Shown here piece after piece: positions 2,414 through 64,000 of a stretch of 64,000 nucleotides of DNA (position 1 is its first letter; every line of letters starts with the position of its first letter). The notes beneath the pieces were generated by a model. It was given only the letters and a program-made list of their open reading frames with translations. It was not told the DNA's origin and did not search any database. The stretch lies in the sequence record MT127620. One strand, given 5' to 3'. The stretch is from Escherichia phage PGN6866. Made by a program: the position numbers and the translations under genes.

Positions 2414-5056
2414 ATGATCGTTTATAATAACCAAGCACCTGATGCAGTGAATAACGTTGGGCAGTTTGGTGCTACTGAAGGCTCTATCGGAGCTTACAAG
2501 CAAGCAGCAGAGTATGCAGCTGACTCCAAATATTGGGCACTGCTAGCGGAGTCTAAGTTTGGTACAATCGATGACTTGATCGCTGAAGTGGAACGTCTGT
2601 ATCAACAAGGTGTTCTGATGAAGCAAGATATCGAGGATCTTAAGCAGGATTTTAAAGATCAAGATGCTCGTCTAATGACGTTAATTGCTCAAACTAACGC
2701 AGCAGTCTCTGATGCAAATAACGCAGTCGCCCTGATTAACCAGAAACTCATTGAAGTCCAGAATCAGCTTGATGTTCTGTTAGGAATGTCTGTTGATGTA
2801 ACAACCCTCCCTCCGGGAACTCCGGCTACTGGTTCTTTTAATCCTAACACTGGTGTAATTTCTTTAGGTATCCCAGAAGGTGAACCCGGAAAAGATGGTT
2901 CTGTTAAAGACTTGGATACAGCACCTACAGGTGTTCCAGAGCTAGGTGACTTGGGTTTCTATGTTGACAAAGATGACAATACCGTCCATAAAACTACTCT
3001 AGAGAATATTGCTAACTTAATCCCATCTGTTCGTTCTGTTTCTGTTAATGGGGGACCAGCTCTTGATGGAGAGGTTGCTCTAACAATCAACAAAGAGACA
3101 GTAGGTTTAGGAAATGTTCTGAACGTTGCTCAATACAGTCGTCAAGAGATTAATGACAAATTTGACAAGACTACCAAGACATACCAATCAAAAGCAGAAG
3201 CTGATGCTGATGCTCAGTATCGTCAAGTAGGTGAGAAAGTTTTAGTTTGGGAAGCTACTAAGTATGAATTCTATACTGTTGCTGCTAACAAAACACTAAC
3301 TCCTGTTAAAACTGAAGGTAGGATCCTTACTGTTAACTCCCGTTCTCCAGATTCCAGTGGTAACATTGACATTACTATTCCAACAGGAAACCCTTCTCTG
3401 TATCTTGGTGAGATGGTGATGTTCCCTTATGACCCAACGAAGAATATCTCCTATCCGGGTGTTCTTCCAGCTGACGGTCGTCTAGTATCTAAAGAATCTG
3501 CTTCAGACTTAGGTCCATCTCTTGTCAGTGGACAACTTCCTGTTGTTTCTGAAACTGAATGGCAAGCAGGGGCTAAACAATATTTCTCATGGGGTAAGCT
3601 AGCAGATGGGATTACTGATGCGGATTCTACTAATTTCATCAATATTCGACTTCCTGATTGGACTGGAGGGGAGGCAATAAGAGCACCAGATTCTGATAAA
3701 GATTCTCAGTATAATGGGTCTGTACAGGCTCAGAAACCTTATGTTGTCACTGTAAATAACCAAGCTCCTGATGAGATTACTGGTAATGTGAACATCTCCA
3801 GATCTATCTTGGGAGCAGCTTCTTCTGGTGCAAACTCTGATATAACATCCCTGACAGGACTCACTACAGCTCTCTCTATCGCTCAAGGCGGTACAGGAGG
3901 GAAAACTCCATCTGAAGCTAGGGCAAACCTGAATCTTGAAAGATTTCAACAAGACAATTCGCAGACTTTGATATATTCTCCTGATTATGCCCGTCGTGTT
4001 TATGTTGACAACACTGGTGGTTCTTGGGGGTGCCAGAACGTAACAGATGGCGGTTTTATTGCTCTTGGTATTCCTCAAGGGGGTACGGGAGCTAAGGATG
4101 CTGCTGGTGCACGAAGCAATCTCGGTTTGGGTTCAGTGTCCACGCTAAACAATATACCCGTAGCTAATGGAGGTACTGGAGCAACTACTGCTGCTGGTGC
4201 TCGTTCCAACTTAGGTCTCGGGAGTGTTTCTACTCTAGATAACGTCCCTATCGCTAGCGGTGGGACAGGTGCTGGGGATGCTGCTGGTGCAAGGTTTAAC
4301 CTAGGGTTGGGGAGTTCAGCTACTCTAAACACTGGAACTACCAGCGGTAATGTTCTTAAGGTTGGTGATTTTGGAATTGGAAGACCTGACGGTGCTCTTG
4401 TTTTTGATACTACTTCACAAGACCAACTTCTTGCTGGACTTGACACTTATGGGCTGTGTGTGTTTAGGAATAACCAACAAATAGCAGCACCTTGGGATAT
4501 ATGGAATTACTCCTCAAACCTCTTCTTTAGGGCAGGAGACACATACAGTATGATAAGTATTCCGTTTGAGTCTGCCGGTAAGATAAAAGTTTTTGGTGGT
4601 GCAGCAGGCAGTGGGTGGAAAACCTCAAGGACGGTATATGATACTGTAAATACAACTGTTGACGTCAATGGCTTTATCAAAGCAGCGTCACCAATAGTTA
4701 AGGTATTCCATGACGGAAGTTTTGAAACAAATGAACAATCTGATGGAGTTAGTGTTAAGAAAATCTCCACTGGGGTTTATTTAATTTCAGGGTGTCTTGG
4801 TCTTAATTCTGATGCAGGATGGGGTGGGGTAGATGGAGGCTTTGAAATCCCAATAGACCGAAACAAACAACCTAGAGTTTGGCTTGACTATGAGGTTAAA
4901 GAGGATGGTTCTCTTTTAATTAAAACTTATCATAGAACCCATTCAACATCCCCAGCTTTTGCTAGAAACGAGTTGGAAGGTTTTTCTGACGGAGACCCTG
5001 TTGACATTCCTAAGGATGCGTTCATTTCGGTTCGTGTTGAAATGCCTTCTAAGTAA
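2414..5056 (+). CDS. Tail fibre protein with repeated GGTG-x(6-8)-AR-x-NLGLG motifs
   Basis: Four tandem copies of a GGTGA..AGAR.NLGLGS repeat typical of phage tail fibres; RBS taaggag. Confidence 0.8.
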   Translation: MIVYNNQAPDAVNNVGQFGATEGSIGAYKQAAEYAADSKYWALLAESKFGTIDDLIAEVERLYQQGVLMKQDIEDLKQDFKDQDARLMTLIAQTNAAVSDANNAVALINQKLIEVQNQLDVLLGMSVDVTTLPPGTPATGSFNPNTGVISLGIPEGEPGKDGSVKDLDTAPTGVPELGDLGFYVDKDDNTVHKTTLENIANLIPSVRSVSVNGGPALDGEVALTINKETVGLGNVLNVAQYSRQEINDKFDKTTKTYQSKAEADADAQYRQVGEKVLVWEATKYEFYTVAANKTLTPVKTEGRILTVNSRSPDSSGNIDITIPTGNPSLYLGEMVMFPYDPTKNISYPGVLPADGRLVSKESASDLGPSLVSGQLPVVSETEWQAGAKQYFSWGKLADGITDADSTNFINIRLPDWTGGEAIRAPDSDKDSQYNGSVQAQKPYVVTVNNQAPDEITGNVNISRSILGAASSGANSDITSLTGLTTALSIAQGGTGGKTPSEARANLNLERFQQDNSQTLIYSPDYARRVYVDNTGGSWGCQNVTDGGFIALGIPQGGTGAKDAAGARSNLGLGSVSTLNNIPVANGGTGATTAAGARSNLGLGSVSTLDNVPIASGGTGAGDAAGARFNLGLGSSATLNTGTTSGNVLKVGDFGIGRPDGALVFDTTSQDQLLAGLDTYGLCVFRNNQQIAAPWDIWNYSSNLFFRAGDTYSMISIPFESAGKIKVFGGAAGSGWKTSRTVYDTVNTTVDVNGFIKAASPIVKVFHDGSFETNEQSDGVSVKKISTGVYLISGCLGLNSDAGWGGVDGGFEIPIDRNKQPRVWLDYEVKEDGSLLIKTYHRTHSTSPAFARNELEGFSDGDPVDIPKDAFISVRVEMPSK

Positions 5057-5065
5057 ATTAACAAT

Positions 5066-5084
5066 GCTCCCTTCGGGGAGCTTT
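5066..5084 (+). terminator. Weak terminator/attenuator hairpin (gctccc-ttcg-gggagc, short T-run)
   Basis: 6-bp stem with UUCG loop and 3 T, immediately followed by RBS of next gene. Confidence 0.4.
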
Positions 5085-5096
5085 AAGGAGATTTAA

Positions 5097-7277
5097 ATGT
5101 CTAGAGAATTAATGCCCAAATCTGGTATAATGATGCCTCATGTGGTTGTAACCAGAGATGCGGCTGTTGTTGGTGTTTCTACCGTAGATGGACAGGCAGG
5201 GGCTATTGACCTCACTGGAAAATATCTACAGAAAACCGACGCAGCTGCTACATACCAAACTAAAACAGAAGGTGCATCTAAAGATTTTGTGCTGGATTCA
5301 ATTCAACCTATTATGTCTGGTGCTTTGTTCCGAGAAGACCCTTGGGTTGTTAACGATACCCCCTTCCGCTCTACTGGTGCTAATGGTGTAGAGTCTGTGG
5401 ATATGATGAAAGTTACTACTGATAACTCAATTAAGATTGGTAGTTATGCCTCTTCAGTTCAAGGTGTAGAGATTCATTCTGCTGGTCGTCTTCAGGTTGT
5501 TGACCAGAATGACTCTGGAGTAGAAACTAAGTATCCTGTTTATTCTAAACGTTATCGTCCTGAGGTTGAGGATTTGCCTTTTGCTGCAATTGGTTCTTAT
5601 GTTAAAGATTCCAAAGGTCGTACTGTTGGCGTAAGTCGTACTGGTATTAACTCTGATATCAAACAGCTCACACAGAAAGTTACTTTCACTCAACCAGTAA
5701 CTATTCCTGATGCAGTTGGTGATTATGATGCAGTCACTTTGAGACAACTTCGTAATAGTGGTGGCGGTTCTGGCGGTCCTACAATGAGTGGTATTTCTAA
5801 CTTTGGTATTGGTGATTTCCACTTACGTGATAGTCGAGCTTTCATTCCAGCTTTCGAAGTGGTATCTGATGGTCAACTTTTAAACCGTGCCGATTACCCA
5901 GACCTTTGGGCTTACGCACAACTGTTGTCACCTATCGAAGATTCAGAATGGGTAAGTAACATCTACCAACGTGGTAAATACTCTAAAGGTAATGGCACAA
6001 CTACTTTCCGTGTCCCTGACAGAAACGGTGTACAATCTGGTTCTATTCAAGGTCTTTTCGGGAGGGGTGATGCTGGTTCTTCTGGTAGCAATGGGGTTGT
6101 ATCAGATTCTGGTGCACCAAATATCACATACGCATCTCCTCATACAATGGTAACTCTCGCCTCTGCTCCTGGGCAAGTGGCAACTAATGGGGCAATCCAA
6201 TCTATCACTTCTACAGATGACGTTGCTCCTGTTGGCGCAGGAGGTAAATATATATCCACAAACTTTGATGCATCGCGTTCTAGCTCTATCTATGGTCGCT
6301 CTCCTTCTGAGATAGTTCCTCGTAACTTTATTGGTGTTTGGACTATCCGTGCACACGGTGGATTTACTGCTGCTAATACTTCTTGGTCTGTTATTAATAG
6401 TGACTCGACAGAACCTGCATCCGGAACGGTTGTCAGGGGTGGTAGTGTCAAATCTGAATATAAGATTGGTACAAGCCTAAGGTATCAAGCATATCTTCAG
6501 GCATATGGGAGAATTGGTGGGTTGGCGTCTGAACAAGGCGCTGTGGTATCCAATGGGGTGCAAGAATGGTCATTCAACCAAGCTGGTACTTTGTACTTCC
6601 CAAGCGCAGAGATTCAGATTGGCACACTACGGCCTGATGGCGCATTACATATTAACGCATACGTCAGACCGAATGATGTCGTTGTACAACCATTAAACTC
6701 TGTTGGGGTCGCAGCTTCAGAAAGAAACGCCATCAGGATGATAAACTACGCGAATGTGCCGGAAGGAGGTTATATAAACTCCGTTGGCGGCGACTGGTAT
6801 GACGGGAATTGGTTACTTGGCGGAGTCAGAAGTGGCACAACAGCATTAGACCGCGTGCAGATTAACGTCTCTGATGGGCTTGGTAGTGGTGCCTCATACT
6901 TATTTGGATCTGATGGTATAGCAAGATGCCAAGAATGGAGAAGTACATCTGATGAACGAGTTAAAAGCAATATTGAGCGCATCAGTGACCCACTCTCTAA
7001 GATGAAGAATATCAAGGGGGTTTCATGGGTTCTGGAAACCAATGGCTCAACAGGGTATGGATTCATCGCACAGGACGTAGAGAAGGATTTTCCTGAAGCT
7101 GTATCAGAAACAAAGGCTTCACCAGTCACTCTGCGAGATGGGTCTGTGTTGGATAACGTAAAGTCGGTTAACACCACGGGCGTTGCTGCTGCGTTGCACC
7201 ATGAAGCTATTCTTGAACTCATGAAGCAGATTGAAGAGCTTAAGAAAGAGGTGTCAGAGCTTAAGTCTAGTAAGTAA
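5097..7277 (+). CDS. Tail fibre/spike protein with C-terminal S74-type intramolecular chaperone domain
   Basis: C-terminal segment (SDERVKSNIERI...GYGFIAQDVEKDFPEAV...ELKKEV) matches autoproteolytic chaperone domains of tail fibres/endosialidases. Confidence 0.75.
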   Translation: MSRELMPKSGIMMPHVVVTRDAAVVGVSTVDGQAGAIDLTGKYLQKTDAAATYQTKTEGASKDFVLDSIQPIMSGALFREDPWVVNDTPFRSTGANGVESVDMMKVTTDNSIKIGSYASSVQGVEIHSAGRLQVVDQNDSGVETKYPVYSKRYRPEVEDLPFAAIGSYVKDSKGRTVGVSRTGINSDIKQLTQKVTFTQPVTIPDAVGDYDAVTLRQLRNSGGGSGGPTMSGISNFGIGDFHLRDSRAFIPAFEVVSDGQLLNRADYPDLWAYAQLLSPIEDSEWVSNIYQRGKYSKGNGTTTFRVPDRNGVQSGSIQGLFGRGDAGSSGSNGVVSDSGAPNITYASPHTMVTLASAPGQVATNGAIQSITSTDDVAPVGAGGKYISTNFDASRSSSIYGRSPSEIVPRNFIGVWTIRAHGGFTAANTSWSVINSDSTEPASGTVVRGGSVKSEYKIGTSLRYQAYLQAYGRIGGLASEQGAVVSNGVQEWSFNQAGTLYFPSAEIQIGTLRPDGALHINAYVRPNDVVVQPLNSVGVAASERNAIRMINYANVPEGGYINSVGGDWYDGNWLLGGVRSGTTALDRVQINVSDGLGSGASYLFGSDGIARCQEWRSTSDERVKSNIERISDPLSKMKNIKGVSWVLETNGSTGYGFIAQDVEKDFPEAVSETKASPVTLRDGSVLDNVKSVNTTGVAAALHHEAILELMKQIEELKKEVSELKSSK

Positions 7278-28917: not shown

Positions 28918-29128
28918 CACAAGTAAGATCTCCGAGAAGGGACAGCGATAACAAACGAGACTGCTCATCGCTATACAGTTGATCAATCTCTTCTTTAAGT
29001 TTTGCCAACTCGATGAAATTTATAAGTTGACCATGTTCAAGACAGTCTGTTTTTAGTATAAATAAAACTTCAGCGTCTGTTGAATCTTCAGTTGAATATT
29101 TATCAATGTATTCCATTTTCACTCCCAT
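28901..29128 (-). CDS. Small acidic hypothetical protein
   Basis: ORF. Confidence 0.45.
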   Translation of the reverse strand: MGVKMEYIDKYSTEDSTDAEVLFILKTDCLEHGQLINFIELAKLKEEIDQLYSDEQSRLLSLSLLGDLTCDGCTI

Positions 29129-29131
29129 AAA

Positions 29132-29275
29132 TTATGACCAAGACTTAGCTTTTACTTCAACATATGTTTTAACTTCACCTTTCAAGACTTCCTGAGAAGC
29201 ATTTGCACTTTCCTCAGAGTGATGTACAACGGTGATCTCTTTCTTTCCAATCTTATAAGTGTGAATCCAAATCAT
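29132..29275 (-). CDS. Small hypothetical protein (47 aa)
   Basis: Hand-translated; start overlaps upstream stop (ATGA). Confidence 0.35.
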   Translation of the reverse strand: MIWIHTYKIGKKEITVVHHSEESANASQEVLKGEVKTYVEVKAKSWS

Positions 29276-29439
29276 ACTTCTTCCTTGTATTCCCAATTTC
29301 TTTCATAATACCCAGAGTTATAGTTTAGGGCGCACTTCTCGGCCTCTTCTATGTCGTCAGTGTTTAGGATATTTACCCATCCTCCAACTTCATCAAAACC
29401 TTCTTCTACTTCGTTAAACCATACACTATACTTTTTCAT
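29272..29439 (-). CDS. Small hypothetical protein
   Basis: Start trimmed to ATG overlapping stop of upstream small ORF. Confidence 0.45.
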   Translation of the reverse strand: MKKYSVWFNEVEEGFDEVGGWVNILNTDDIEEAEKCALNYNSGYYERNWEYKEEV

Positions 29440-33596: not shown

Positions 33597-33881
33597 TTAA
33601 CCTTTTGGGAACGGCATTAAAAATTCCATAGCAGATTTAATTTCATTATTGATTCGTGCATCTCGATAAGAGATAAACTTACCTTTGCTATCACGTAACA
33701 TTACATGAGTTCTAGCCGTTTTATGAGGAAGTAAAGTGATACTGGTTGGGATAGTATCAATCCCCACAGAGAACGAATTAACAGTCTTACTCTTGGTTAA
33801 CAGGTAAGACCAAGTACGTGGTTTCTGCTCTGGGCGGTTAGGGTATGTGTCTCGAATCTGTACCATAGCTAACTTATTCAT
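33597..33881 (-). CDS. Small protein, tandem paralog A (C-terminus ...FLMPFPKG)
   Basis: Shares TART.V.LR...GKFISY......PFPKG pattern with next gene. Confidence 0.55.
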   Translation of the reverse strand: MNKLAMVQIRDTYPNRPEQKPRTWSYLLTKSKTVNSFSVGIDTIPTSITLLPHKTARTHVMLRDSKGKFISYRDARINNEIKSAMEFLMPFPKG

Positions 33882-33882
33882 A

Positions 33883-34137
33883 TTAAACTCCTTTGGGGAA
33901 CGGGATGAGGTTTTCTACTGCAACACGGAAAGATTTTTCTACGTTCTTATTCTTATAAGAGATAAATTTTCCATCAGCTCCTCGAAGGAGTACGTTAGTG
34001 CGAGCTGTATTTGGGTTTTGTTGAATCATAGAACGAATGATGTTCTCTGAACCTCTATGCTTATTGGTGAATTTCCAACTGATAGTTTTACCGGTACGAG
34101 TTACATCAATGATATTTACGATTTTTACAATAGACAT
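33883..34137 (-). CDS. Small protein, tandem paralog B (C-terminus ...NLIPFPKGV)
   Basis: See paralog A. Confidence 0.55.
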   Translation of the reverse strand: MSIVKIVNIIDVTRTGKTISWKFTNKHRGSENIIRSMIQQNPNTARTNVLLRGADGKFISYKNKNVEKSFRVAVENLIPFPKGV

Positions 34138-34206
34138 ATTTATTACCTAAGAAGTTTAATTTGGTTTATATAAAAGAAAAGGCCACCTGATTAGGCAGCC
34201 TTTGTT

Positions 34207-34500
34207 CTAGAGACGAAGCCAAGTTTGATAGTCAGCTTCAGTGTAATGGTTGTTTCGAGAGTTGTTTTTCATTTCCTTGAGAGTAGCTCTCAGGTCAATG
34301 TTATGCTCTCTCCTTGTTCTATTCGGGTCTGTATCTTCTAATAGATGGGAGTGATCACTACAAGAGTAGTGCTTATAGTGGTCCCTGTATCCTCTACTTG
34401 GAGAATACTTGGTCATTAAAGTTGCAACTCTTTTTACACCCTCTGCTTTACAGAATTTACAATAAGTGTGAATTGTACATCTTTTTGTTTCTGCTGACAC
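34207..34500 (-). CDS. Cys/His-rich hypothetical protein
   Basis: ORF with CxxC-like motifs. Confidence 0.5.
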   Translation of the reverse strand: MSAETKRCTIHTYCKFCKAEGVKRVATLMTKYSPSRGYRDHYKHYSCSDHSHLLEDTDPNRTRREHNIDLRATLKEMKNNSRNNHYTEADYQTWLRL

Positions 34501-34510
34501 TATAACCTCT

Positions 34511-34825
34511 TTATGAGCTTAAAGCTCCTTTGCGTGCTCCAGCTGCTTTTCCAGCTCGATCACCACTTTTGCCGCCGTTTGAACGGTTTGAGCTGACTGA
34601 TTCAACACGTAAGTTGCTTGACGCATTAGAGCCTCCAGACTTGACAGCTCGTTTGTGTCCAACGTCTTTACCTCTGACAGCAGCTTTTCCATCGCGCTTT
34701 TCAACGATGCGACGTGCACGGTGGCGCTGAGCATCTCCGCTCTTGCTCCCAATTCCCGTTTCACCGCGCTTGATCGCAGTCCTTCTTTCTTGTGCATAGT
34801 CTCTTTTTCCTACATGATCTGCCAT
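34511..34825 (-). CDS. Basic Gly/Lys-rich low-complexity protein
   Basis: RBS aggag, TAATG coupling to upstream gene; locally GC-rich. Confidence 0.45.
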   Translation of the reverse strand: MADHVGKRDYAQERRTAIKRGETGIGSKSGDAQRHRARRIVEKRDGKAAVRGKDVGHKRAVKSGGSNASSNLRVESVSSNRSNGGKSGDRAGKAAGARKGALSS

Positions 34826-35154
34826 TAGATTTCTCCTGATTCTCTTTGATTAAAGGTGTGGATGGCGTGGCAATTAGCACACAATATCCTGCACTTCCTC
34901 ATCTCTTCTTTTACTTGAGATAAAGATCTGGTGTGCCCTTTGGAGAGTTCGAATGACTTAGTTAATGGATTTAAATGATCAAACTGAAGAGCAGATGCGT
35001 GGCCCTTAAAGCCACACTCAGAGCATCCATAGAATGTTTTAACTCTACGGATAAAAGCTAGTTGCCTAACTCTTCTTTTCTCGTTATCTGCCTTTCTCTT
35101 ATCTCTATTTCCTGGGTCGGCCCATCTACACGAGTCATTGCAAAACCTCTGCAT
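34825..35154 (-). CDS. HNH endonuclease
   Basis: C.EC......FDHLNP...LC.NCH motif. Confidence 0.7.
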   Translation of the reverse strand: MQRFCNDSCRWADPGNRDKRKADNEKRRVRQLAFIRRVKTFYGCSECGFKGHASALQFDHLNPLTKSFELSKGHTRSLSQVKEEMRKCRILCANCHAIHTFNQRESGEI

Positions 35155-35242
35155 TATATACTTCGTTACAAATGGTACCTTACAGGTTTCACATTCCTTG
35201 TGGTATGTTGCTATTTGGACCCCCTTGTGTGAACTATAAGAA

Positions 35243-35692
35243 TCAACTCTCTTCTAGTATAATCCTGTACATTGCTTCCTGAGCATCTTTCATATCTACA
35301 TATGGACCAAGCACCTCACTATCTTTTCTGATGAACCAATCACCTTCTTTGAATATCAGAGATACGTGAACATCTTTATTATTTGCTTTGACTGCTCGCC
35401 CCCATGCTGGGTTATGTCGGGATAAATTATCAATATGACAATTATCAGTGCGCCCATCCAGATGGTGTAAATAAGATTGAGGCCACTGGCCTGTCTCTTT
35501 ATACCATACGGCTTTCTTCAATTCAACAATGCCACATGGTAGTCCTATGTATAGGATATTAGGCTGTAAGCTAAAATTATACCACTTAGATGTGAAAGGG
35601 ATTAGAGGTTCCCTTTTGGTGAAAAACATCGGCCCCTCTCGAATGTATTCTAGACTATCTATACACTTCAAAATCTTTTCACTATAAAGCAT
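35243..35692 (-). CDS. HNH homing endonuclease with AP2-like DNA-binding domain
   Basis: HHLDGRTDNCHIDNL (HNH_3-type) motif plus C-terminal AP2-like segment. Confidence 0.7.
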   Translation of the reverse strand: MLYSEKILKCIDSLEYIREGPMFFTKREPLIPFTSKWYNFSLQPNILYIGLPCGIVELKKAVWYKETGQWPQSYLHHLDGRTDNCHIDNLSRHNPAWGRAVKANNKDVHVSLIFKEGDWFIRKDSEVLGPYVDMKDAQEAMYRIILEES

Positions 35693-36432
35693 TAACTGTT
35701 TACCTTTTCCATAGCTTTAACAATAGCTTTACAGAAACCAGAACGAACAATGTCATCTGATTCGCCGTCTACAATCTCAGCAAACTCATACAGATCGTGT
35801 TCATCAATAAAGTTAGTAGCCCAAGTAAGACCGCTCTCACGACCACGCATATCATGCTGGTTAGTATCACCCATGCAGAACAGCTGAGAGGTTTCTCCCA
35901 ATCGAGTCATGATTGAGAAGGCTTCATCTTTAGTGGTGTTCTGGAACTCATCAACAATAACAATAGCATCATTGAAAGAACGACCACGGAGATATTCCAG
36001 AGGTACGAACTCAATGTTACTGTTACCGAGCTGGCATTCATAGAACCCCTTACCGTATCGCTGAGTAATAACATCAATGATAGGCATCAGGTACGGTTCA
36101 AACTTCTCACGCATTCCTCCCGGAAGTAACCCAAGAGAGTTGCCCATGCCGACAGAAGGGCGACTCAGAATGATCTTCTGAATCTTACCGCTCTTCAGTG
36201 CATCAATAACTGTGGAAGTGATTACAAAGGTCTTACCACAGCCCGCAGGAGCGTCTGTGAACACAACTTGTTTAGTCTTAATAGCATTGAGTAGCTCAGA
36301 CTGAAACTGGTTCTGAGGGACTACAGGCTTTGCTAAAACCACCTCTTCATACTCTCGCTTACCTTTACGAGTAACAAGTGCTTCCCGACGAAGGTCTTTC
36401 CGTGATTCTTTCCGTGATTGACGACGACTCAT
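35692..36432 (-). CDS. phoH: PhoH-like ATPase
   Basis: Walker A APAGCGKTF and overall PhoH pattern. Confidence 0.85.
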   Translation of the reverse strand: MSRRQSRKESRKDLRREALVTRKGKREYEEVVLAKPVVPQNQFQSELLNAIKTKQVVFTDAPAGCGKTFVITSTVIDALKSGKIQKIILSRPSVGMGNSLGLLPGGMREKFEPYLMPIIDVITQRYGKGFYECQLGNSNIEFVPLEYLRGRSFNDAIVIVDEFQNTTKDEAFSIMTRLGETSQLFCMGDTNQHDMRGRESGLTWATNFIDEHDLYEFAEIVDGESDDIVRSGFCKAIVKAMEKVNS

Positions 36433-63376: not shown

Positions 63377-64000
63377 TTACCACTCGTAACTTACACCAGC
63401 GCCCAGAACAGCGTCACTCTCTGAAGTCATTGCCACTGATGCTTTAGTTACTACGTTTTCATTGAAACGAGCACTAACACCAACAGCAAGAGCAGATTCA
63501 CCATCGTAAGCACCTACCCCAGCACCAACAGAGAAAGCAGATCCTTGACTTACTTGCGGGATGTTAGCCATTGCAGCCACGCCAGAAATACCAGCAGAGG
63601 CATGATCACGGTTACGGTCTACTTGTTTTTGCAAAGAAGCAAAACGTTTGTTGGTGGATTGTTCCAGAGCTTTGATGGATTTGGCGTTAGCATTAACGGC
63701 AGACATATCTGCATCTTTACCATTTTTGCCATTTAATCCGTCAACGCCATTCAAGCCTGCTGCACCAGTTAGGCCAGTTTCGCCTTTCTTACCATCTGCA
63801 CCAGAATCACCTTTTTCACCTTGAGCGCCATCTTTACCATCAATGCCATCTTTACCATCAATGCCATCTTTACCATCAATGCCATCTTTACCATCAATGC
63901 CATCTTTACCATCAATGCCATCTTTACCATCAATGCCATCTTTACCATCAATGCCATCTTTACCATCAATGCCATCTTTACCATCAATGCCATCTTTACC
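63377..64000 (-). CDS. Collagen-like (Gly-X-Y) repeat protein with YadA-type C-terminal anchor domain; N-terminus beyond window
   Basis: Frame is open upstream of the track TTG start and reads continuous G-X-Y triplets; C-terminus AGISGVAAMANIPQ...SVGAGVGAY...AVGVSARFNEN...GAGVSYEW. Confidence 0.6.
   Translation of the reverse strand, partial: GKDGIDGKDGIDGKDGIDGKDGIDGKDGIDGKDGIDGKDGIDGKDGIDGKDGIDGKDGAQGEKGDSGADGKKGETGLTGAAGLNGVDGLNGKNGKDADMSAVNANAKSIKALEQSTNKRFASLQKQVDRNRDHASAGISGVAAMANIPQVSQGSAFSVGAGVGAYDGESALAVGVSARFNENVVTKASVAMTSESDAVLGAGVSYEW
63826..64000. repeat. Perfect 18-bp tandem repeat (atcaatgccatctttacc, ~10 copies, continues past window end)
   Basis: Identical units; encode (GKDGID)n on the minus strand. 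Confidence 0.9.

Follow-up and report, generated by a model that had tools for sequence, protein, structure and literature searches.

A cysteine-less HNH-like protein in the replication module of Escherichia phage PGN6866 and related podophages

Introduction

Two long open reading frames (ORFs) overlap, in different frames, within a short GC-rich segment of the genome of Escherichia phage PGN6866 (sequence record MT127620). This locus raises the question of which frame is expressed, what kind of protein it encodes, and whether its base composition marks it as foreign. We addressed this question in a stretch of 64,000 nucleotides, here called the window, and in the corresponding loci of related phages.

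Results and Discussion

Gene order and signals at the locus

The window is the genome of a Kuravirus (phiEco32-like) coliphage with 97% identity to phage ES17, and the approximately 4 kb around the 104-aa ORF are 97.3% identical to the same Escherichia phage. This region matches 99 phage records, almost all of them Escherichia/Shigella Kuravirus-like (phiEco32-like) podophages. On the minus strand, a gene for a PhoH-like ATPase is followed by ORFs of 149, 109, 104, and 97 aa and by a hairpin, after which four small ORFs precede the DNA polymerase gene (Table 1). Orthologs of the 104-aa gene are ES17_54, SU10 gp56, phiEco32 phi32_58, 7-11 gp068, and LUZ24 gp26.

Both of the long overlapping ORFs reported by a first-pass annotation of the sequence are present on the minus strand, one of 104 aa and one of 92 aa in the +1 frame relative to it. 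The ribosome-binding site and the TAATG junction described for the longer ORF can also be read in the sequence: its start codon is preceded by AGGAG, and the TAA of the upstream ORF (34827–34825) shares a base with its ATG. The upstream ORF of this pair lies in an insert of about 876 nt (34827–35702) that holds both upstream HNH ORFs and is missing from most of the Kuravirus-like loci compared; the coupling is therefore to a mobile insert.

The downstream flank varies as well. The 97-aa ORF is missing from two phiEco32-like loci (L010 and L008), where the segment without a counterpart is 34202–34512. In the window its product shows full identity to SU10 gp55, a protein for which mass spectrometry found 1 peptide. 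In phage 4E8, a different HNH homing endonuclease gene lies directly 3′ of the homolog of the 104-aa gene. A scan for related loci with the 104-aa protein as the single query returned 7 loci, and comparison of loci shows variable flanks around a 104-aa gene that forms a conserved island between inserts and is itself no insert. The gene sits between insertion hot spots for mobile HNH genes.

Table 1. Features of the locus and of the 104-aa gene, in order of transcription, with window positions.
Feature	Position	Strand	Basis or remark
PhoH-like ATPase gene	35692–36432	−	First in local transcription order
149-aa HNH_3-like ORF, second ORF of insert	35243–35692	−	Pfam HNH_3, E = 4.2e-5
109-aa HNH endonuclease ORF, upstream neighbor	34825–35154	−	Pfam HNH, E = 3.6e-4; PHROG 2255, E = 1e-26
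Ribosome-binding site AGGAG	34833–34837	−	7 nt 5′ of the ATG (34825–34823); read from sequence
CDS of 104-aa basic protein, ATG start	34511–34825	−	Stop codon 34511–34513
Second ORF, 92 aa, ATG start, +1 frame relative to 104-aa ORF	34519–34797	−	Judged non-coding
N-terminal family-specific region, residues 8–45	34691–34804	−	Predicted helices 10–20 and 30–45; pLDDT 72–88
47-nt block, codons K28–E42	34698–34744	−	Nucleotide sequence unchanged in 12 Kuravirus-like phages, even at synonymous sites
Cysteine-less HNH (ββα-Me) core, residues 52–82, GKDVGHKRAVKSGGSNASSNLRVESVSSNRS	34580–34672	−	Conservation, Pfam, AF2 model, Foldseek
Core codon H57	34655–34657	−	
Core codon N71	34613–34615	−	
Core codon N80	34586–34588	−	
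C-terminal Gly/Lys/Ala/Arg-rich basic tail, residues 83–104, NGGKSGDRAGKAAGARKGALSS	34514–34579	−	Predicted helix; pLDDT ~71–79
97-aa Cys/His-rich ORF, downstream neighbor	34207–34500	−	PHROG 9585, E = 5.5e-46; presence variable
Terminator-like hairpin 3′ of 97-aa ORF	34178–34203		Terminator scan

The predicted 104-aa product (10.9 kDa) has a pI of 11.5 and 26 Lys+Arg residues, and cysteine is absent from its whole sequence. The first-pass annotation had called it basic and Gly/Lys-rich. Basic it is, but its commonest residues (16 Gly, 15 Arg, 14 Ala, 13 Ser, and 11 Lys) make it Gly/Arg/Ala/Ser-rich rather than Gly/Lys-rich. The description of the protein as repetitive is weakly true, in that a single short motif, [SG]KSGD, recurs (residues 27 and 85), but a KGG motif is lacking.

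Reading frame and expression

Among Kuravirus-like sequences, dN/dS is 0.08–0.25 in the 104-aa frame versus 1.6–4.5 in the +1 frame, and the variable columns fall 24/12/47 on the three codon positions of the 104-aa frame. The GC content at third codon positions (GC3) is 0.34 in this frame; the +1 frame would give 0.61, unlike any neighboring gene. The SU10 ortholog gp56 is identical to the window protein at 102 of 104 positions, and its mass is calculated as 10.83 kDa; mass spectrometry revealed it as the product of a middle gene (2 peptides, 18.3% coverage, 10.8 kDa; PMC4281155). In phiEco32, the DNA polymerase/nucleotide-metabolism gene cluster likewise belongs to the middle class (PMC8948821). 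The 104-aa frame is the coding gene, as dN/dS, conservation across genera, and mass spectrometry of the SU10 ortholog all attest, and the original choice of this frame was correct. The frame evidence and the SU10 data therefore speak for expression in this frame, rather than for a silent locus or for expression of the alternative frame.

A large phage protein family

The 104-aa protein is a full-length member of PHROG 4590 (E = 1.4e-40), a family that itself carries no functional annotation and whose members share the same length and the same gene position. By tblastn, homologs of the gene were found in 252 phage records, with 50–68% (about 60%) identity in phages of Pseudomonas, Aeromonas, Salmonella, Cronobacter, Proteus, Vibrio, and Photobacterium. 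The Pseudomonas phages concerned are Bruynoghevirus (PaP3, LUZ24 with gp26, and tf), and the Salmonella phage is 7-11 with gp068. Among the named relatives in PHROG 4590 (phi32_58, SU10 gp56, 7-11 gp068, and LUZ24 gp26), identity ranges from 60 to 100%. The wider family amounts to 1079 representatives at E ≤ 1e-3 and to at least 7153 clusters at 90% identity. Its domain is also found at the C-terminus of some proteins of 350–960 aa, but no Pfam domain is present in the N-terminal parts of these fusions, which consequently give no functional clue. Some database records title the homologs “HNH endonuclease”; no functional work on phi32_58, SU10 gp56, LUZ24 gp26, or any other family member came to light in our literature search.

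Evidence for an HNH-type core

Conservation was assessed in 149 representatives with a mutual identity of at most 50%. The family consensus of the core, GKDVDHKxxxxxGGSNxxSNLRVRSxSxNRS, corresponds to an HNH motif without cysteines, and its key residues are nearly invariant (H57, 99%; N80, 95%; N71 and G65, 94% each; G64, 91%). Two further conserved motifs, R8-D-Y10-x-x-E13 and R34-x-x-A37-R38-R39, define the N-terminal region (R38, 95%; R34, 94%; R8, 93%; E13, 91%; Y10, 89%; A37, 86%). The tail motif GGKxGxxAGKAAGARKG is kept in the close family and is variable in the wider one.

The window protein itself has no match to the HNH families of Pfam at E ≤ 1 and none in NCBIfam, so that its membership among HNH proteins rests on transitive and profile evidence. 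Of 32 family members, 11 match Pfam HNH (best E = 8.8e-5), 7 match HNH_3 (best E = 2e-5), and 7 match the NCBIfam IscB model, the last by way of its HNH domain. One relative (P0180), which matches the family profile with E = 3e-13, reaches 24.9 bits against Pfam HNH, for which the gathering score is 21.4.

A first AlphaFold model, built from 32 sequences, had a pLDDT of 68; a second model (AF2) from 148 sequences reached 80.6, with approximately 88 over the core. In the latter, the two N-terminal helices are followed by strands at residues 54–57 and 72–75, a helix at 77–86, and a C-terminal helix. H57 is placed on the first strand, N71 just before the second strand, and N80 on the helix that follows. 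Foldseek comparison with BFVD yielded significant matches to small phage proteins that bear the name “HNHc domain containing” (E = 1.4e-4 to 8e-3). Against the PDB, about two-thirds of the listed weak matches were HNH nucleases, among them the Gme HNH nickase 4h9d, HNH-Cascade, colicins E9/E7, pyocin S2, EsaD, McrA, and Rhs-CT; the best of these fold matches (E = 0.86–1.6, TM ≤ 0.42) are non-significant. Neither the sequence-profile search nor the fold search of the PDB gave a significant match, the best profile match being the Cas9 HNH domain (DHIVPRTDGGSN...NL...CN, E = 6.5).

On this transitive and profile evidence, the 104-aa protein is a divergent cysteine-less HNH (ββα-Me) domain set between basic helices and a basic tail. 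Membership in the zinc-ribbon (CCCC/CCCH) subgroup of HNH proteins, of the McrA or HK97 gp74 type, is ruled out by the absence of cysteine from its 104 residues.

The acidic residue that precedes the histidine deserves attention. Residue 56, directly before His57, is Gly in the window protein and the Kuravirus clade and Asp in most relatives; Asp54 is present. An Asp or Glu at position −3 from the histidine is found in 17 of 17 members without Asp at −1, versus 16 of 53 with Asp at −1, counts that are not independent because the members are phylogenetically related. This pattern of acidic residues points to a relocation of the metal ligand (here to Asp54) rather than its loss. It could also be that the replacement of the usual metal-binding Asp by Gly has reduced or abolished activity in the Kuravirus clade.

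Comparison with known HNH proteins

The 104-aa protein shares its size of about 100 aa, and the helices before a ββα-Me core, with the small stand-alone phage HNH nicking endonucleases (Gme HNH, 4h9d; HK97 gp74). The Geobacter enzyme (Gme HNH, 4h9d) was its top or second fold match in the PDB, though a non-significant one (E = 0.86–3.0, TM ~0.4). Small stand-alone phage HNH nickases of the HK97 gp74 type keep Cys/His zinc ligands and adjoin terminase genes. Unlike these enzymes, the 104-aa protein has no Cys and is located in the replication module.

A core with H...N...N and no zinc-binding cysteines, of the type DH-x-GG/N-N-x-NL-x-x-x-x-N, is also characteristic of the nicking homing endonucleases of the I-HmuI type (HNH_3). 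The 104-aa protein differs from these in having no added DNA-binding domains, no sporadic distribution, and no association with introns or insertion sites. Its likeness to Cas9, to IscB (through the NCBIfam model), and to the type I-F HNH Cascade (through the fold matches) is confined to the catalytic core of some 35 residues; the 104-aa protein is not RNA-guided and is no part of a larger protein.

Proposed activity and role

The 104-aa gene is consistently found in the nucleotide-metabolism/replication module, with the DNA polymerase gene 0.7–1.9 kb downstream on the same strand in all relatives examined. The gene order is shared by six genera, namely Kuravirus, Nieuwekanaalvirus, Moazamivirus, Lahexavirus, Crifsvirus, and Bruynoghevirus; in Bruynoghevirus, the homolog overlaps the end of the gene for the polymerase exonuclease subunit. 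This constant location points to a likely role in processing DNA while it is replicated or recombined, or in breaking down host DNA. Judging by the gene neighborhood, the candidate functions are the processing of replication/recombination intermediates, host-DNA breakdown, and nicking of the genome.

In all likelihood the 104-aa protein serves the replication module as a small metal-dependent nickase or nuclease acting on DNA; the nicking chemistry of the stand-alone HNH nickases is the model for the mechanism proposed here. The basic helices and the tail would hold the DNA. At the end of strand 1, His57 would activate a water molecule, and one divalent metal ion could be held by Asn80 together with an acidic residue of strand 1 (Asp54 here, Asp56 in most relatives), while Asn71 would brace the hairpin. 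From the established chemistry of ββα-Me nucleases we infer a one-metal, His-activated hydrolysis of DNA. Because some 100 residues offer just one active site, the DNA would probably be nicked, or cut with little sequence specificity. Our best explanation of the locus, to which we assign a probability of roughly 60%, is therefore an expressed middle gene whose cysteine-less HNH protein acts as an active small nuclease or nickase.

It is unlikely, yet deserves to be weighed, that the HNH fold has been domesticated and is catalytically dead, leaving purely a small basic DNA- or RNA-binding protein such as an architectural or accessory factor of the replisome. The high pI and the abundance of Lys and Arg fit such a protein, as does the Gly in place of Asp56 in the Kuravirus clade; the Arg-rich N-terminal motifs are conserved as strongly as the HNH residues, and a few family members (P0067 and P0075) have eroded HNH motifs. 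The 94–99% conservation of His57, Asn71, and Asn80 throughout a very large family would, however, be unexpected had the chemistry been lost, and an acidic residue is found at −1 or −3 from the histidine in every member. The first-pass annotation had offered a basic nucleic-acid-binding protein as one possibility, a fair description in our judgment and one to which the non-catalytic reading comes close.

A possible link to the nicks of LUZ24-like phages

A more specific role for an active nickase would be a connection with the LUZ24-like Pseudomonas phages tf and Rembedalsseter, whose genomes carry strand-specific nicks at TACTRTGAC (PMC3517423, PMC11780129). We found no paper that names the nickase behind these nicks. 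Both phages carry the family gene, and in all LUZ24-like genomes matched by tblastn this gene adjoins that for the DNA polymerase exonuclease subunit. In the PaP3 proteome, no ORF had a Pfam HNH-family match at E ≤ 0.01 among the matches listed (best 25 of 27 families), so that no other HNH candidate was seen there. PaP3's own family member likewise escapes recognition by Pfam HNH. It is conceivable, if rather improbable, that PHROG 4590 is the site-specific nickase of LUZ24-like phages, or a replication-module nickase of short-terminal-repeat podophages. In a nickase of this second kind, the nicks would be used for replication, recombination, or duplication of the terminal repeats, and the specificity in Kuravirus would be different or looser.

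A scan for strand asymmetry in PaP3 recovered TACTATGAC, which occurs 8 times on one strand versus 0 on the other (expected 0.12, p = 7e-13). The same scan of the 64-kb window gave nothing comparable, with a best p of about 1e-6 before correction, and TACTRTGMC shows no enrichment there (2 occurrences versus 2.09 expected). Scans of the window for strand asymmetry of exact and gapped k-mers, validated on PaP3, picked up nothing beyond a tandem coding repeat of 18 bp and patterns with codon periodicity. The nick-motif system of tf and LUZ24 is thus rejected for the window on the lack of motif enrichment and of any comparable strand-exclusive motif. The proposed link has a low probability, given that the family is distributed far more widely than the nick motif and that the window holds no nick-like motif.

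GC content and origin of the gene

The rise in GC content that first drew attention to this segment is real: GC is 0.505 over 34511–34825, versus a window mean of 0.425 (sd 0.034, windows of 315 nt), which places the segment at the 98.5th percentile. The same level is reached by six other stretches of the 64-kb window. By codon position, GC is 0.60, 0.57, and 0.34 (GC1, GC2, and GC3), and GC3 of the neighboring genes is 0.30–0.40. When the GC content was predicted from the protein and the codon usage of the phage, a value of 0.504 ± 0.015 was obtained, against an observed 0.510 (z = 0.39). The high GC content follows from the make-up of the protein, in which Gly, Arg, Ala, and Ser abound and hydrophobic residues are few.

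The first-pass annotation had taken the shift in composition as a sign of horizontal acquisition, a suggestion contradicted by the native GC3, the resampling of expected GC, and the synteny; a horizontally acquired island was rejected on these same grounds. Of the 99 Kuravirus-like records matching this region, 98 carry the 104-aa gene, in the same position, and its recurrence at the same place in six genera indicates that it is old and vertically inherited.

These observations bear on whether the gene could be a free-standing HNH homing endonuclease, that is, a selfish mobile gene of recent acquisition, an origin that would suit the horizontal acquisition suggested in the first-pass annotation. 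Mobile HNH genes are common in these phages, with two of them directly upstream here, and some homologs bear the name of HNH endonucleases in the databases. Against such an origin stand the near-universal presence of the gene at one position in Kuravirus-like phages, its synteny across the six genera, purifying selection, and native GC3 and codon usage; moreover, a protein of some 100 aa has no separate DNA-recognition domain, and the variable inserts are its neighbors, the 104-aa gene itself being the conserved island. We consider this origin quite improbable.

The overlapping frame and an invariant block

The 92-aa ORF in the +1 frame could in principle be the expressed gene, or an overlapping gene expressed together with the 104-aa gene. 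The +1 frame is open in the window, in ES17, in EP335, and in PaP3, where it is annotated as ORF.38; in addition, the 104-aa gene has diverged at synonymous sites about half as much as phoH, and one block of 47 nt is invariant. This must be set against the high dN/dS and the alien GC3 of the +1 frame described above and against 5–7 stops that interrupt it in the homologs of 7-11, LAh_8, and A24. Moreover, an open +1 frame of at least 96 codons arose in 14% of synonymous resamplings with the window's own codon usage. Such openness follows from the rarity of T at the second codon position, where it stands in just 13 of the 104 codons. Neither PHROG nor Pfam yields a noteworthy match for the 92-aa ORF, and the published SU10 identification is of the annotated gp56 at 10.8 kDa, which equals the mass of the 104-aa protein, whereas a 92-aa product would have 10.1 kDa. 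As a candidate, an overlapping +1-frame gene was rejected on dN/dS, the stops in distant homologs, and synonymous resampling, and expression of this frame, alone or alongside the 104-aa gene, is very improbable. The 92-aa ORF is judged to be a non-coding by-product of the main gene's amino-acid composition, that is, of its wealth of Gly, Arg, Ala, and Ser and its paucity of hydrophobic residues. ORF.38 of PaP3 is annotated in the wrong frame.

The invariant block (Table 1) is a feature in its own right (permutation p < 5e-5); the phoH genes of the same 12 phages differ by up to 15–19%. A 63-nt stretch at the block has at least 93.7% identity across 98 records, and distant homologs use other synonymous codons at its position. 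As to RNA structure, no mRNA window had z < −2, and no sigma-70-like promoter was found within the 104-aa gene. Plausibly, the block owes its constancy to the mobile HNH genes next to it, either through gene conversion associated with them or because it serves as their target site.

Finally, the resemblance to KGG-repeat stress proteins proposed in the first-pass annotation is refuted, and a KGG-repeat or other low-complexity stress protein has next to no likelihood: the tail is rich in Gly, Lys, and Ser and the composition basic, but there is no Pfam KGG match at E ≤ 1 and no KGG tripeptide, and the conserved positions fit an HNH fold.

Implications

As found, the 104-aa gene is an ordinary conserved middle gene, and the result in itself matters little. 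It offers a worked example of a local rise in GC content and a long overlapping ORF that can both be explained by amino-acid composition alone. For the family, the consequence is one of labeling: a gene already annotated as “hypothetical” can now be described as encoding a cysteine-less HNH-type protein of the replication module, and the “hypothetical protein” of about 250 sequenced phages, with more than 7000 clusters at 90% identity, could be relabeled as cysteine-less HNH-type nuclease-like. Were the link to the LUZ24-like phages true, the family would supply the so far missing enzyme that makes the strand-specific nicks in these therapeutic phages, and the gene would matter more.

An invariant block within the 104-aa gene

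The gene for the 104-aa basic protein (PHROG 4590), which has a cysteine-less HNH core, contains a 47-nt block with zero variable positions in 12 Kuravirus-like phages (see table). In these 12 phages the constancy extends to 15 third-codon positions (permutation p < 5e-5), and the palindrome CGTGCACG lies within the block on the - strand. The same positions are free to vary in distant homologs of the gene. No RNA-structure signal was found for the block, and no sigma-70-like promoter was found within the gene.

Homologs and domain architecture

In the Pseudomonas phage PaP3 (AY078382.2), the annotation places ORF.38 (29062-29331) in the +1 frame. The conserved homolog of the 104-aa gene is a 102-aa ORF (29066-29374) that overlaps the end of the gene for the DNA polymerase exonuclease subunit. 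Six metagenomic proteins of 450-960 aa (P0143, P0146, P0150, P0160, P0182, and P0203) carry at their C-terminus the same HNH-plus-N-terminal-helix module as the 104-aa protein. No Pfam domain was found outside this module in any of the six; P0143 begins with the nucleotidyltransferase-like motif G-x-Y-H-G-P-x-x-x-H-H.

Repeats and strand-biased words

An 18-bp tandem repeat, GGTAAAGATGGCATTGAT, is present in at least 10 copies in an array truncated by the window end. It codes for a collagen-like Gly-Lys-Asp-Gly-Ile-Asp repeat, and the gene that holds it is presumably that of a tail fibre or surface protein. The 8-mer TGTCTAAA has 8 copies on the coding strand versus 0 on the other (expected 0.9), an excess that is not significant once the number of k-mers is corrected for. 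This 8-mer may belong to a promoter or another regulatory motif.

Neighboring ORFs and variable flanks

Two small ORFs in the window are adjacent and both match PHROG 6814, and are therefore tandem paralogs. In the ~97% identical phage ES17 one of the two is labeled "autotransporter adhesin," a name that appears to be erroneous. The ES17 record also lacks an annotation for the 109-aa HNH ORF, and the adjoining HNH_3-like ORF is only partially annotated there (ES17_55, 279 nt).

Variable inserts lie on either side of the conserved 104-aa gene and are missing from many relatives. In phage 4E8 the downstream junction is occupied by a different HNH homing endonuclease. The flanks of this gene thus resemble a hot spot where mobile endonuclease genes insert.

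Features of the window and, where listed, of the ES17 locus
Feature	Window coordinates	Strand	ES17 locus	Content or match
47-nt invariant block	34698-34744	-		
Upstream insert	34827-35702			HNH-type ORFs of 109 aa and 149 aa
Downstream insert	34202-34512			97-aa Cys/His-rich ORF, PHROG 9585
109-aa HNH ORF	34825-35154	-	4817-5146	Pfam HNH, E = 3.6e-4; PHROG 2255, E = 1e-26
84-aa ORF	33883-34137	-		PHROG 6814, E about 1e-37 to 1e-39 for the pair
94-aa ORF	33597-33881	-		PHROG 6814, E about 1e-37 to 1e-39 for the pair
18-bp repeat array	63829-64000	-		
8-mer TGTCTAAA (+ coordinates)	11526, 22555, 30011, 39108, 40338, 54030, 55570, 56718	-
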